Shown here piece after piece: positions 2,441-6,176 of a DNA stretch of 6,176 nt. The stretch's first letter is position 1. Every line of letters starts with the position of its first letter. The notes under the pieces are model-generated. The model was not told the origin of the DNA. It made no database searches and saw nothing but the letters and a program-made list of their open reading frames with translations. The DNA is from a virus (Duplodnaviria > Heunggongvirae > Uroviricota > Caudoviricetes). The DNA is taken from the IMG/VR virus record IMGVR_UViG_2671180770_000013; one strand, 5' to 3'. Made by a program: the position numbers and the translations under genes.

Positions 2441-2588
2441 AAACAACAACCATGTGTTTTTGCAAAACCATTTGATATCATTGACATTTTTCGCATTGAC
2501 GACATCAAAACACATCGTAAGGTTGTTGTATTTATTTTATTTTCACCTTACTTATCAATTAGATATACCAAACAATTAAACAACAACC
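2441..2588 (-). promoter_or_regulatory. candidate cosB (terminase small-subunit binding region) with three GGTTGTTGT(TT) repeats
   Basis: Identical 11-mers AAACAACAACC at 2441-2451 and 2578-2588 (minus-strand GGTTGTTGTTT) and an inverted copy GGTTGTTGT at 2521-2529, with an AT-rich tract between the distal pair. Arrangement resembles lambda R1/R2/R3 but the repeat sequence differs from the lambda R sites as I recall them. Confidence 0.4.
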
Positions 2589-2626
2589 ACCCCCTCAAAA
2601 AATCTCATAAATAGTGAAAACGCGCG

Positions 2627-2638
2627 AGGTCGCCGCCC
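2627..2638 (-). other. cosN cohesive-end sequence (lambda-type 12-mer GGGCGGCGACCT on the minus strand)
   Basis: Plus strand reads AGGTCGCCGCCC at 2627-2638, the exact reverse complement of the lambda 12-nt cohesive end. Orientation and distance to the Nu1 start match lambda left-end architecture. Confidence 0.75.
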
Positions 2639-2837
2639 CGTAACCTGTCGGATCGCCGGAAAGGACCCGCAAAATGATAATAATTATCATCTACATGTCA
2701 CAACGTGCATCTACGCCATCAAACCACGTCAAATAATCAATTATGACGCAGGTATCGTATTAATTGATCTGCGTCAACTTAACGTAAAAACAACTTCAGA
2801 CAATACAAATCAGCGACACTGAATACGGGGCAACCTC

Positions 2838-3032
2838 ATGTCAACGAAGAACAGAACCCGCAGAACAACAACCCGCAACATCCGCTTTCCTAACCAAATG
2901 ATTGAACAAATTAACATCGCTCTTGAGCAAAAAGGGTCCGGGAATTTCTCAGCCTGGGTCATTGAAGCCTGCCGTCGGAGACTAACGTCAGAAAAGAGAG
3001 CATATACATCAATCCAAAGTGATGATGGATGA
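2838..3032 (+). CDS. small ribbon-helix-helix (Arc/Mnt-like) protein, possibly DUF3950/YlcI-like
   Basis: 64-aa ORF with ATG start and weak GGGG upstream. Arg-rich N-terminal tail, then NIRFPNQMIEQINIALEQKG-SGNFSAWVIEACRRRL, which matches the beta-strand/helix A/G-x-S-x-N turn/helix B pattern of Arc and Mnt (compare RWP/RMP ... NGRS(V/M)NSE). Contains an NFS motif that I recall as the DUF3950 signature. Confidence 0.55.
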   Translation: MSTKNRTRRTTTRNIRFPNQMIEQINIALEQKGSGNFSAWVIEACRRRLTSEKRAYTSIQSDDG

Positions 3033-3219
3033 ACATCCCGGTTTCTTCCACCATCGCACCGGAAAAGCGACTATGAGGGTAACCCTGCGTCTGTCAGCAC
3101 AGTAAAACCCGGTGTGCATCGTTTTTGATTATTCCCGCACACTCACGCAGAAGGAATTCCCCGTCGGGCTACGGTCATGGTTAATGCGGGAATACGGCGA
3201 CGATACAGCGCATAATGTG

Positions 3220-3768
3220 TCAGGCTTGAATACCTTTATCGAATCCCGGTAATAAAAACTGTCCCTGTCTCTCCAGACGTTCCAGCTTTGCAAGCAATTG
3301 AGGTTTTTTCGTTCTCCCCCAGCGATTGAGCAGACGGCCTGACATGCTGGCGACATCCTTCTCTTTCATGTACTCCAGCATTACGGCGTTACGTTCTGCT
3401 TCATAACTTTCGCTGTACTTACGGAGTTCTGCTGACATCCAGTTAAACGCATTGATATAGGCTTCTTTAACAGCATCGGCTTTTGCCCCGTTAAATCCCA
3501 TAACCAGCATAACGAAGCCACTAAAGTCCATGCGGTAGTAAATCTGTTTCTTGTCAAAAATACCTAAGTCATTGATTTTCTCGACGGCCCAAAAATGGGT
3601 TGTCGAGAATTCCTCAGAACATCTCAAACATTTAATAGCCCTAATCACATGCTGATGGCGTTTACCAAATGCCCTGGCAATCTGGAAGGTGTCAGTTACC
3701 GGTTGACCTTCTGCTGCGGTAACTAACTGGCGAAAGTCGAAGTCATGATTCGCAATTAATTCATTCAT
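3220..3768 (-). CDS. rha: Rha-family phage regulatory protein
   Basis: 182 aa from the ATG at 3768. N-terminal signature LVTAAEGQPVTDTFQIARAFGKRHQHVIRAI is typical of the Phage_pRha domain. The ORF-track start at 3837 is a GTG giving a 23-aa extension; the ATG was chosen by domain boundary. Confidence 0.7.
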   Translation of the reverse strand: MNELIANHDFDFRQLVTAAEGQPVTDTFQIARAFGKRHQHVIRAIKCLRCSEEFSTTHFWAVEKINDLGIFDKKQIYYRMDFSGFVMLVMGFNGAKADAVKEAYINAFNWMSAELRKYSESYEAERNAVMLEYMKEKDVASMSGRLLNRWGRTKKPQLLAKLERLERQGQFLLPGFDKGIQA

Positions 3769-3921
3769 GGCGTTGCCTGCTTCTTTGAAATGAACCTTTG
3801 CCGCACAGGAAACCAGCCCACCGAGGCTCGCCAGCACTAACTGGTATCCTCAAAGGCCCATTCCAAAGGGTCAGGTTCGGTGTTTATTGTGCGCTGCGGT
3901 GCGCGGTGAAATACCGGTACA

Positions 3922-3949
3922 AAAATGCCCCGCATCTGCGAGGCATTTT
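3922..3949. terminator. GC-rich hairpin flanked by T/A runs; candidate bidirectional intrinsic terminator between Rz and rha
   Basis: AAAATGCCCCGCA-TC-TGCGAGGCATTTT: 12-13 bp near-perfect inverted repeat. A U-run follows the GC core on both strands (ATTTTTG on minus, ATTTTCC on plus). Lies 40-65 nt downstream of the Rz stop. Confidence 0.4.
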
Positions 3950-3986
3950 CCTGAAAGTCACTTGTTAAATTTCAGTGAAATTAAAA

Positions 3987-4424
3987 TTATTTTAAGCACT
4001 GCGTCCTGATGTATTCCTGCAGGTAGTTAACCTGCGCGGTTATCTTGTCGATTCCACCTCGGAGACGGTAATAATTGAGTTCAGCATCTGCTGTAAGTCC
4101 TGGGCTTTCTCCATCGCCCATGCTGCTGGCTCCGGTCGTTGACTTTGCACAGGTGGCGGAGACTTGCAGGCGCTTACGCCCAGCAGAAACATCAGCACGG
4201 AGACTTTCGATAGTCGCATTAGCATCAGCAAGCTCCTTTGTGTATCTGGCGTCAAGTTCTGCTACATCACGTTGCCGCTTCTGCATATCAGCGATGATGG
4301 ATGTGGCTTTATCGCGCTGCTCTTTGTAGGCGATGGCGTTATCACGGTAATGATTAACAGCCCATGACAGGCAGGCGATAATGCAGATAACCAGAGCGGA
4401 GATAATAACGGTTACCCTGCTCAT
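3987..4424 (-). CDS. Rz: i-spanin Rz
   Basis: 145 aa from the ATG at 4424. N-terminus [31 protein letters not shown] closely matches recalled lambda Rz. Has an N-terminal transmembrane segment and a coiled-coil-like body. Its start overlaps the endolysin stop (ATGA). GGGGG Shine-Dalgarno upstream. Confidence 0.9.
4040..4225 (-). CDS. Rz1: o-spanin Rz1 (lipoprotein) embedded in Rz in the +1 frame
   Basis: 61 aa from the ATG at 4225 with AAGGAG 7 nt upstream. Signal peptide with lipobox (LLGVSA-C), then a Pro-rich mature region ([13 protein letters not shown]). Lies entirely inside Rz in another frame, as in lambda. Confidence 0.8.
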
Positions 4425-4918
4425 TGTTGCCCCCACAAACAGACTTCACGCTCAATCTCGCGGCGAGTCATCAGCCCTTTCCATTGCTTACCGCCAGCGT
4501 ATGTCCAGCGCCGTAGCTGATCACATGCGCTTTTGATATCGCCCTGGTTTATTTTGCGAAGAAGCGTCGATGTTCTGAAATTGCCAGCGCCCACGTTGTA
4601 AACGAACGAGTAAAGAGCGCCGCGCGTTGTTTCCGGTATATCGACTTTGATGTACGGGTTTATTTGTCTGGCGACCGTGGCAAGGTCTTTATTCAGGAGG
4701 GCTTTGCATTCTGCTTCGGTATACGTTTTACCGGGCATGATGTCTTTTCCGGTGTGTCCGTGACATACAGTCCATACGCCAACGATATCTTCGTATGGTA
4801 TGTAGCTGACACCTTCCAGGCCATCGTCACCACTCGGACCAGTGATGAGCACAGACGCTATGGCAACAGCCCCACCACCAATAGCAGCAGCAACGGCTTT
4901 TCGTAATGATGGAGGCAT
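4421..4918 (-). CDS. R: SAR endolysin (phage-21 R-type lysozyme)
   Basis: 165 aa. N-terminal Gly/Ala-rich signal-anchor-release segment ([20 protein letters not shown]). Lysozyme catalytic motif E-x8-D-x5-T ([24 protein letters not shown]). Near-identical to my recollection of phage-21 R and DLP12 RrrD. Confidence 0.9.
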
Positions 4919-5124
4919 TATTCACCTCTCACAGCCTTGCGCTTATCTTCTTTAATCTTGAAATAAAGGTTTGTCAGATACGTCAGCAGGCCAAACAGCA
5001 GACTCCCCAGCACACCTATCGCCACCCACTGGGACGGAGAGACTTTGTCCAGCAGCTGCAGTAACCAGTATCCCGTCCCCACCGCTGACGTGGTGTATGA
5101 CACACCCGTTGTGATTTTTTCCAT
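4918..5124 (-). CDS. S: pinholin (phage-21 S-type class II holin)
   Basis: 68 aa, [68 protein letters not shown]. Two transmembrane segments and a charged C-terminus. Stop overlaps the endolysin start by 1 nt. No in-frame upstream start for an antiholin form. Confidence 0.85.
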
Positions 5125-5167
5125 CTGATGTATGTCTCCGTCACCGCCGACAGAAAATGAAAGTAAA

Positions 5168-5204
5168 GGAAAACAAAAAGCCGCCAGTGTCGCCCACTGA
5201 CGGC
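5168..5204 (-). terminator. intrinsic terminator of a short late leader RNA (tR'-like)
   Basis: Minus-strand RNA GCCGUCAGUG-GGCGA-CACUGGCGGC (10-bp stem including one U-G pair) followed by UUUUUGUUUU. Ends about 44 nt upstream of the holin ATG. Confidence 0.5.
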
Positions 5205-5281
5205 CAACGCCGGGAGCCGTGATTATGGCATTCAGGCTCTGCTAAAAATGCCAGATAACATTCCGGCTCCCCCCCTGATTC

Positions 5282-5310
5282 AGGTTATAAATGACACAAT
5301 ATCTTGACAA
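5282..5310 (-). promoter_or_regulatory. candidate late promoter (pR'-like)
   Basis: Minus strand TTGTCA (5310-5305), then TATAAC after a 15-bp spacer or TAACCT after 17 bp. Lies about 105 nt upstream of the tR'-like terminator with a structured segment between. Identical in the second repeat copy. Spacing is suboptimal and the assignment is tentative. Confidence 0.25.
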
Positions 5311-5380
5311 CACCCATCACTGTCTGTCAGAAAATGTACTGCCAGATATAAGTATCATGTGAAACCCAACTATCCTTCTT

Positions 5381-5423
5381 AGCCAGTACTTCTCCGACGA
5401 AAGTCAGTACTGGCTGTTTTTTT
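5381..5423 (+). terminator. plus-strand intrinsic terminator directly 3' of the gene X stop
   Basis: AGCCAGTACT..(GAC-GAAA-GTC)..AGTACTGGCT: 10-bp perfect stem with an inner GAAA-capped 3-bp stem, then G + T7. On the minus strand no U-run follows the hairpin, so it is terminator-like only on plus. Confidence 0.5.
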
Positions 5424-5424
5424 A

Positions 5425-5808
5425 TTATGCTGCCGGTGCATTTATCTCCAGCACCAGACTTTCTATCTCAACGCCATACGCTGCATTTTTTGTAACATCC
5501 GTCAGCGTCAGCGCATTCAGCCCCAGTGTCAGACTGTCTTTTATGACCTGGAATGCCGGGCCAGCCACTCCATTCAGTTTCGGAGTAACCGTGGCACTGC
5601 CGGCGGTGAACACCAGCTCCAGCGTCTGCCAGTCGTTACCGTAATCGCCGAACTCCCCCAGCTTCGTGTTTCCGGCTTTCCTGTGATGCATCAGATTCAC
5701 TCTAGCCACCCACTGGGACGGAGAGACTTTGTCCAGCAGCTGCAGTAACCAGTATCCCGTCCCCACCGCTGACGTGGTGTATGACACACCTGTTGTGATT
5801 TTTTCCAT
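5425..5808 (-). CDS. chimeric ORF: pinholin N-terminal 35 codons fused in frame to the C-terminal 92 codons of an unidentified protein (gene X)
   Basis: ATG at 5808 is the duplicated holin start. Residues 1-35 are identical to the holin, with one synonymous difference. After the junction at 5704/5705 the frame continues through [92 protein letters not shown] to TAA at 5425-5427. Whether it is expressed or functional is unknown. Confidence 0.45.
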
Positions 5809-6063
5809 CTGATGTATGTCTCCGTCACCGCCGACAGAAAATGAAAGTAAAGAAAAACAAAAAAGCCGCAAGTGTCACCGACTGACGGCCAACGCCGGGA
5901 GCCGTGATTATGGCATTCAGGCTCTGCTAAAAATGCCAGATAACATTCCGGCCTCCCCTGATTCAGGTTATAAATGACACAATATCTTGACAACATCCGT
6001 CACTGTCTGTCAGAAAATGTACTGCCAGATATAAGTATCATGTGAAGTACATCTACCCGTTTT

Positions 6064-6099
6064 AGCCAGCGTCCTTCAGAGTGGGCGCTGGCTTTTTTT
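6064..6099 (+). terminator. plus-strand intrinsic terminator, copy-2 variant
   Basis: AGCCAGCGTCC-TTCAGAGT-GGGCGCTGGCT (11-bp stem with one U-G pair) followed by T7. Flanks match copy 1 but the stem interior differs while still pairing. Confidence 0.5.
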
Positions 6100-6100
6100 A

Positions 6101-6176
6101 TTATGCTGCCGGTGCATTTATCTCCAGCATCAGACTTTCTATCTCAACGCCATACGCTGCATTTTTTGTAACATCC
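6101..6176 (-). CDS. 3' end of unidentified gene X (continues beyond window)
   Basis: Same reading frame and C-terminus as the gene X segment in the chimera ([24 protein letters not shown], one Val-to-Met difference). Stop TAA at 6101-6103. Open to the window edge. Confidence 0.5.
   Translation of the reverse strand, partial: DVTKNAAYGVEIESLMLEINAPAA

Follow-up and report, generated by a model that had tools for sequence, protein, structure and literature searches.

The stretch of DNA analysed here, referred to as the window, is a 6,176-nt segment of a caudoviricete record (IMG/VR IMGVR_UViG_2671180770_000013). It is a lambdoid prophage segment, in the orientation reverse to that of the lambda map, and this work concerns a small gene lying beside its cos site. 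On the basis of the list of open reading frames (ORFs) and of Pfam, NCBIfam and PHROG matches, positions 2838–3032 of the plus strand, with the ATG at 2838 and the stop codon at 3030–3032, carry a gene for a 64-aa protein (MSTKNRTRRTTTRNIRFPNQMIEQINIALEQKGSGNFSAWVIEACRRRLTSEKRAYTSIQSDDG) of the DUF3950, or YlcI/YnfO, family. A weak Shine–Dalgarno sequence (GGGG, 2827–2830, plus strand) lies 8–11 nt before the ATG, at a position matching the annotated ribosome-binding site of CPT_434_77, the phage 434 counterpart of the gene. Since cosN, with its 12-nt cohesive end AGGTCGCCGCCC, maps to 2627–2638, where the lambda and 434 records terminate in the alignment, the ORF starts 200 nt from the cos nick, that is, from the right end of the virion. 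The cosQ element AGGACCC (GGGTCCT on the minus strand) was transferred to 2662–2668 from the annotation of phage 434, in which it lies 24–30 nt from the right end. The gene points away from cos, is antisense to the late operon and converges on a Rha-family gene, rha (3220–3837, minus strand; Pfam Phage_pRha E 6.9e-21, ORF11CD3, phrog_518). A first-pass annotation had described a 64-aa ORF at exactly these coordinates, transcribed away from cos and towards rha, and had assigned its product to DUF3950 and given it an Arg-rich N-terminal arm. All of this was confirmed: the arm is basic (K4, R6, R8, R9 and R13), with no acidic residue among the first 22.

The 64-aa protein matched Pfam DUF3950 (PF13132) with E 2e-20 (72.8 bits, cut-off 25), NCBIfam NF041551 (YlcI/YnfO) with E 1.6e-09 (37.6 bits, cut-off 30) and phrog_949 with E 2.3e-35. 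Scanning 1.8 billion proteins yielded 141 cluster representatives at E ≤ 0.001, many of the closest being frameshifted copies from noisy assemblies; the true diversity of the relatives lies in Enterobacterales and Pasteurellaceae. Comparison of the first 52 codons with the copy of phage BP-4795 gave a pN of 0.083 against a pS of 0.505, with a ratio of 0.16. Judged from these sequence comparisons, the ORF is a real gene under purifying selection, and no chance reading frame. In E. coli genomes the gene is labelled by PGAP as 'YlcI/YnfO family protein'. Phage lambda itself carries an identical core ORF, intact, at 48115–48303 (complement; locus L004, 200–394), at which RefSeq NC_001416 shows no feature. 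A genome-wide CRISPRi essentiality screen of lambda is tabulated by annotated lambdap genes, and the 48115–48303 ORF is not among the rows covered here (PMC10695390). The lambda 'orf-64' was considered as the same gene and discarded: it corresponds to lambdap73, located between Q and S, and its two-hybrid hit with Nu1 is irrelevant here. As for expression, K-12 RNA-seq data list ybcW–ylcI as a convergent pair with overlapping transcripts (PMC12288877), and in O157:H7 the genes with differential expression include one of the DUF3950 family (PMC7709258).

The 64-aa protein contains the conserved family core K-x-I-R-F-P … N-F-S-A-W-V-x-[ED]-A-C. Across alignments of 40–100 sequences R16, F37 and V41 are invariant, and I15, F17, I25, N36, S38, W40, A44 and C45 are conserved in at least 90% of the members. 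The family alignment reads, in order, a basic arm rich in Ser, Thr and Asn, the I-R-F-P stretch, a helix, a loop, and a second helix with the pattern N-F-S-A-W-V-x-[ED]-A-C-x-x-[KR]-L; insertions, of 0–8 residues, are taken by the interhelix loop alone. Read at the level of sequence, this is the spacing of a ribbon-helix-helix (RHH) protein.

Structure prediction, which had been suggested as a check on the fold, was run with AlphaFold on the monomer. The models had a pLDDT of 70 with a 23-sequence alignment and of 73 with a 100-sequence alignment, the core residues 21–50 reaching 83–89 in the latter. From these models the predicted layout of the protein comprises a basic arm (residues 1–13), a strand at about 12–18 (TRNIRFP), helix A (19–32), the loop GSGNFS and helix B (37–60). 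In both monomers the two helices were found (19–32 and 37–60/61), the N-terminal segment remained unpaired, and no strand of at least three residues appeared. An unpaired segment is what would be expected of a strand that needs a partner subunit. When the monomer model was searched with Foldseek, the top matches were NikR, Arc, MazE, ParD2, HicB and NikA, none with E below 0.48. Profile searches pointed in the same direction. Specifically, phrog_497 (HicB-like) was matched by 46 of 100 family members (best E 4.2e-06), and three 'Arc-like repressor' PHROGs by 16, 15 and 11 of the 100 (best E 1.3e-04 to 2.6e-04). Alignment with the Arc family by hhalign placed NIRFP on NLRWP in the expected register (P 6e-04, probability 28%), and in the ungapped comparison NIRFPNQMIEQINIALEQKG falls on Arc NLRWPREVLDLVRKVAEENG. 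Each of these lines is weak to moderate when taken alone. Considered together, they make a beta-alpha-alpha RHH fold for DUF3950 likely in our judgement, supported if not proven.

Relatives of the gene were also sought by a genome scan with one genome per species, which retrieved 80 DUF3950 loci, about half of them being lambda DNA in unrelated taxa. Among the genuine distant homologues, 26 loci have a common context. It consists of an integrase gene, often AlpA and sometimes AntA/AntB, followed by the DUF3950 gene, which is encoded on the opposite strand, and then by an Icd-like gene, small genes and a primase gene of the P4 type; in 6 loci an HK97-type capsid gene is also present. Two E. coli satellites are annotated with P4 hallmarks, namely a Derepression protein, a DUF927 primase, a P2-family capsid protein and an ogr/Delta-like protein. 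These elements are satellites of the P4-like, phage-inducible chromosomal island (PICI) or capsid-forming-PICI types, and they harbour the majority of the distant homologues. A 2026 survey reports 'YlcI/YnfO family protein' among the accessory genes of capsid-forming PICIs (PMC13612085).

Regulatory regions were aligned for 22 satellite loci and for the two E. coli satellites. In all of them the DUF3950 gene is divergent from the operon running from the icd-like gene to the primase gene, and the region of about 200 nt between the Icd-like and DUF3950 genes has one architecture throughout. This begins with a GC hairpin showing compensatory changes, followed by two boxes about 23 bp apart. The second box abuts a conserved GTCAA, which on the other strand reads TTGACG, a –35 element for the leftward operon, and the boxes cover the spacer and the start of that promoter. 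A T-rich stretch follows, and then TGTATAGT, the extended –10 element of the DUF3950 gene, overlapped by a third box. Thirteen of the 22 loci contain boxes of the form GTG-N5-8-CA[CG] at a density of 3–4 per 150 nt, compared with 0.03–0.29 in shuffled sequences.

Within one element the boxes have the same centre; from one element to another the centre changes, and it does so together with the tripeptide in front of I-R-F in the protein. Members with xYKG pair with TGTTTAAACA (Xenorhabdus, Morganella, Pectobacterium and E. coli), those with KKN with the box TGTGCGCACA and those with TKK with the box GTGCGGCCACAC, and LKA-RVP, a divergent member, pairs with the box GTGTGGCCCAC. In loci L057 and L071 the C-terminal 31 residues of the two proteins are identical, and the strand residues and the boxes differ. 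No part of the protein varies more than this tripeptide, for which at least 20 variants were counted; TRN is confined to the lambda type. From the sequences, this layout resembles the pattern expected of an autoregulated repressor with a beta-ribbon reading the centre of the box. For Gram-negative PICIs, the activator AlpA is the sole regulator reported in the literature consulted, and the existence of a repressor has been called unclear (PMC6092414).

Some observations on the satellite loci stand apart from this argument. The GC-rich hairpin lies about 110–150 nt upstream of the DUF3950 start, between the start codon of the Icd-like gene and the first box (e.g. GAAGCCCGGTTAGTGCTCCAACACTGCCGGGCTTC in L057); it was present with compensatory substitutions in all the satellite loci whose regulatory region was read (L047–L083, L090 and L091), and could be either a structure in the 5'-leader of the leftward operon or a terminator of antisense transcripts. 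When the Icd-like start, the regulatory region and the DUF3950 gene were used together as a query, 567 of 5426 E. coli genomes gave a partial match. Two satellite homologues, P0193 (L005, 4714–5103) and P0252, have a C-terminal extension that matches small subunits of the Terminase_2 type over their DNA-binding N-terminal part (best E 1.6e-11), an architecture that reads as a putative fusion of RHH and helix-turn-helix domains. In the 10.7-kb Pasteurella element Pmp7 (L003), a 224-aa low-complexity coding sequence (CDS; 2583–3257, minus strand) is antisense to the DUF3950 ORF (2926–3180, plus strand). Its product name, 'transcriptional repressor', was set aside and is no evidence for the role of DUF3950, because the annotated CDS is on the opposite strand and the real DUF3950 ORF is unannotated. 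Long ORFs antisense to the DUF3950 region recur in 26 loci and probably reflect conserved regulatory DNA, not protein. Rpp of E. coli PICIs was likewise rejected as a DUF3950 member, being a winged helix-turn-helix protein.

A different context was met in Rouxiella and Pantoea (L045, L072, L082 and L085), where the DUF3950 gene follows genes for cytochrome bd-type oxidase subunits and no phage or satellite genes are found among the conserved neighbours. As regards the lambda DNA retrieved by the scan, L008, L010, L012, L015, L019 and L025, together with about 30 further loci, are contigs of about 3.5 kb with 98.9–100% identity to the lambda right end, most of them starting 15 nt from the end. 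Their hosts are unrelated (Arcanobacterium, Brevibacillus, Cohnella, Kitasatospora, Pedobacter and others), and some have been deposited as plasmids; one is discussed as a plasmid of Arcanobacterium hippocoleae (PMC11171008). These contigs look like sequencing control DNA present as contamination. Lambda contamination also explains the 'Staphylococcus', 'Veillonella' and 'Campylobacter phage' entries among the protein matches.

In the window, the region upstream of the ORF contains two interleaved short dyads, ATCAATTA/TAATTGAT and TGACGCAG/CTGCGTCA, at 2736–2776. These candidate operators are not above chance. The best 12-mer repeat upstream of the ORF matched at 10 of 12 positions, against a mean of 9.4 and a maximum of 11 in shuffled sequences, and the dyads were rejected as operators: they do not exceed shuffles, lambda has another sequence in one of the arms, and no copy of them precedes rha. 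The element GTGCATCTAC at 2704–2713 was rejected as a satellite-like box, since it is replaced in lambda even though the protein strand is identical there.

The palindrome beside cos, given as 2676–2688 in the first-pass annotation and proposed there as a binding site of the protein, turned out to be a perfect Fur box, TGATAAT-A-ATTATCA (TGATAATAATTATCA, 2675–2689), located 37 nt from the cos nick. All 15 specified positions of the Fur 7-1-7 inverted repeat TGATAATnATTATCA are matched, and the window contains one match where 0.01 would be expected by chance. The box is conserved in lambda (TGATAATGATTATCA), in 434 and in K-12-like loci. The counterparts of this site in K-12, lying before nohA (Qin) and nohB (DLP12), rank with the strongest predicted Fur clusters of that strain, and the nohA site was both selected in vivo and shifted by Fur in vitro (PMC2189734). 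In a CFT073 prophage, a Fur ChIP-exo peak lies at the equivalent site, and the genes on both sides of it are derepressed in a fur deletion, with log2 values of +2.1 to +2.9 (PMC10164565 supplements). This CFT073 prophage is without the DUF3950 gene and has a near-consensus box beside cosQ, at the same position. By analogy with these homologous sites, the sequence 2675–2689 most likely binds host Fur, not the product of the 64-aa gene. Binding of the palindrome by the protein, as earlier proposed, is therefore unlikely.

The CFT073 prophage (L089) carries a TonB-family gene and a secreted-protein ORF (2101–2481 and 2845–3165) in the slot occupied by DUF3950 and bor in lambda and 434. Both adjoin the same Fur-bound site and look like iron-related morons.

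Promoter-like elements overlap the Fur box in both directions. On the minus strand, a sigma-70-like element (GTGACA-16-TATCAT, 10/12, 2674–2701) points across cos to Nu1 and has its –10 inside the Fur box; it is a consensus match only, and the region contains no more sites of this kind than shuffled sequences do. On the plus strand, the best –10 candidates for the ORF are GATAAT (2676–2681) and TATCAT (2685–2690), both inside the Fur box and with poor –35 elements (best 8/12), and the promoter scan gave no better plus-strand promoter between cos and the ATG. Because the best –10 candidates of the ORF lie within the Fur box, Fur control of the 64-aa gene is plausible on sequence grounds. The gene would probably be transcribed from a weak promoter inside or beside the box, and its expression may therefore respond to iron.

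In conclusion, we propose, with a probability of about 0.6, that the ORF is functional and encodes a small, dimeric DNA-binding protein of the RHH type, belonging to DUF3950 and probably a repressor. In this protein residues ~12–18 (T-R-N-I-R-F-P) are predicted to pair with the strand of a second subunit, forming a two-stranded ribbon that would read the major groove. Further contacts would be provided by the basic arm (residues 1–13), the N-terminus of helix B, with the NFS motif, would hold the phosphate backbone, and helices A and B would form the dimer core. By analogy with its satellite-borne relatives, the protein may act as a sequence-specific transcriptional repressor.

Several data weigh against this proposal. 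As for the fold, sequence profile searches of the PDB with two alignments found no RHH protein at a meaningful E value: the best was CdbA (0.58), and the lists were headed by short pAgo and Liprin, not by RHH proteins. A single-sequence PDB search with the 64-aa protein gave ribosomal L16 noise alone. Among 23 members, the Pfam RHH families were unmatched at E ≤ 10, except for RHH_6 (0.092, in 1 of 23), and Pfam Arc (PF03869) had no match at the same threshold. As for the repressor role, satellite-type boxes are absent upstream of the lambda-type gene, the dyads there are within chance, and the BP-4795 gene has an unrelated upstream region; for these reasons autoregulation is not evident for the lambda-type gene. 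In the satellites, the covariation between boxes and strands may reflect co-inheritance of adjacent DNA, the boxes may belong to another protein such as AlpA, and the boxes of L079 (TTKG) are unlike those of the enterobacterial TTKG group. Finally, with regard to Fur control, W3110 ynfO and ylcI are lower, not higher, in a fur deletion, with counts below 8.

Some of these data would also suit a two-helix scaffold that does not bind DNA and acts by protein–protein contact, for instance with a factor of a helper or a satellite. The evidence for the fold is weak, having been obtained on a monomer model, and the lambda-type locus has no identifiable operator. Such a scaffold is unlikely in our view, as it leaves aside the conserved K-x-I-R-F-P with its invariant Arg and the hypervariable tripeptide before it, the basic arm, the profile links to Arc-like repressors, and the box architecture typical of operators in the satellite loci.

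To evaluate a role of the DNA-binding protein on its neighbours, the layout of the locus has to be considered. On the rha side, the late operon continues on the minus strand with Rz (3987–4436), lysozyme (4421–4918) and a P21-type holin (4918–5124). Beyond cos from the ORF, the same strand carries a Nu1-type terminase small subunit (within 1904–2515) and the terminase large subunit (terminase A, 4–1989). Alignments indicate that the ORF and a 185-nt 3' flank (3033–3215, plus strand), common to phages 434 and Turner, travel together as a module, with a mosaic junction exactly at the end of rha. The RNA fold of the flank is no better than that of shuffles (z-score +0.55), and an Rfam scan of the whole window up to E = 1 gave a sole match, at 5345–5429, at chance level. 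The neighbour of the gene is bor in 434 and Turner, which share the 185-nt flank, and lambdap79 in lambda and Rz in BP-4795, where the flank differs. In BP-4795 the gene is kept between lysis and packaging genes, but the HNH/terminase module is of another type. The closest E. coli genome has an intact ORF and, by contrast, an rha pseudogene with a frameshift. We picture the gene, in this prophage, lambda and 434, as a presumably self-contained portable module, antisense to the late operon and lying between the lysis genes and cos.

Elsewhere in the window, a segment with the 5' part of the holin gene and the sequence upstream of it occurs twice (4990–5460 and 5697–6176), the second holin copy being fused in frame to a DUF6645-like fragment (ORF 5425–5871, minus strand). 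The two holin copies are separated by an IS66 element in the E. coli genomes closest to the window.

The first-pass annotation had suggested, by analogy with Arc and Mnt, that the protein may repress a nearby gene, and rha, which is antirepressor-like, would fill the place that the antirepressor has in P22 immI. The protein is Arc-like in fold and sequence, and genes of the antirepressor type recur nearby: rha here, Ant about 1 kb off in BP-4795, and AntA/AntB directly downstream and convergent in 4 of 41 clustered loci. ORF transcription would run antisense into rha, as in the ybcW–ylcI pair of K-12 (PMC12288877), and antisense interference between the two may occur. Repression of rha is not supported by the layout just described, with its variable neighbour, its junction at the end of rha and its frameshifted rha beside an intact ORF. 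Furthermore, because the genes are convergent, the rha promoter is more than 800 bp from the upstream region of the ORF, and the rha promoter region (3838–3990) contains no exact copy of the motifs found upstream of the ORF. We consider this role distinctly improbable.

A cos or packaging factor, binding DNA beside cosQ and modulating terminase or protecting the prophage cos, would account for the constant place of the gene at the junction of lysis and packaging genes in phages with two terminase types, and would fit the Terminase_2-like extension of the two satellite homologues described above. The palindrome that it would bind is, however, a perfect Fur box; Fur has been shown by experiment to bind homologous sites, the box persists in the CFT073 prophage lacking the gene, and the satellite copies reside in a regulatory region, not at cos. 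Moreover, in lambda cosQ-cosN-cosB is credited with the minimal cos function, and plaque formation is considered not to require the genes of the right end. A packaging role is thus very unlikely. An RHH antitoxin of a type II toxin–antitoxin pair, HicB- or CopG-like, hardly deserves credence: HicB-like phrog_497 is indeed the most frequent annotated PHROG link, but the match covers the RHH portion alone (profile positions 98–143 of 342), the sole downstream plus-strand ORF (3112–3252, 46 aa), which runs into the end of rha, has no family match, and neighbours vary between phages, with no toxin-like or conserved partner in all the contexts examined.

Returning to the RHH DNA-binding protein and probable repressor, a broader scenario can be put forward tentatively, and we would sooner bet against it than for it. 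DUF3950 proteins might be unrecognised immunity-type repressors in a large group of Gram-negative satellites (P4-like, PICI and capsid-forming PICI), their hypervariable tripeptide, set on an Arc-like beta-ribbon, matching element-specific boxes at the divergent promoters of the repressor gene and the icd-primase operon, and the operator-less lambdoid copy, under Fur and present in lambda too, might act in trans. Were this the case, the lambdoid copy beside cos could act on satellites or resident elements, amounting to an iron-tuned cross-talk between helper and satellite. The satellite loci supply a candidate repressor, predicted operators and a testable specificity code for Gram-negative PICIs, the elements for which a repressor was called unclear (PMC6092414).

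Whether or not this scenario applies, the gene and its family are already catalogued without function, and the libraries queried give DUF3950 no fold or function, so that the RHH assignment is an incremental but useful step; a literature search retrieved no paper that addresses how DUF3950, YlcI or YnfO folds or what it does. With this assignment DUF3950, including two K-12 y-genes and the unannotated lambda ORF, would gain an RHH fold and a likely sequence-specific DNA-binding activity. In addition, the palindrome is reassigned as a host Fur site overlapping promoter-like elements in both directions, and the presence of an iron-responsive switch at cos in lambdoid prophages calls for an explanation.

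Compared with known systems, the closest counterparts are YlcI (DLP12) and YnfO (Qin) of E. coli K-12, to which the window protein is 95–100% identical over the core. They occupy the same place, between lysis genes and a Nu1 homologue and beside cos, and differ in the C-terminal tail (64 aa in the window, 77 aa in K-12) and in nothing else of substance. Among phage-borne small regulators, the protein resembles P22 Arc and Mnt in size and in the predicted beta-alpha-alpha order, and the base-contacting N11 and R13 of Arc fall on its N14 and R16. Family members match the three 'Arc-like repressor' PHROGs and none the Pfam Arc model, the hhalign probability being the 28% reported above, and their interhelix loop and helix B (NFSAWV..AC) are distinct. 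Unlike the P22 immI arrangement, the window gene is not part of an arc-ant-type operon and has no operator overlapping an antirepressor promoter. The best structural matches are the RHH domains of TacA, the C-terminal domain of HicB, CopG/CopA, and the N-terminal domains of NikR and PutA; compared with these, the window protein stands alone, lacking a toxin partner and any domain for ligand binding or catalysis. Finally, SaPI Stl and PICI Rpr, the master repressors of satellites in Gram-positive cocci, belong to an unrelated protein family, and the window gene differs from them in lying in a phage, not a satellite, and in having no boxes. The satellite DUF3950 homologues, on the other hand, hold an analogous place, each being a small regulator gene divergent from the replication/interference operon, with boxes over both promoters.

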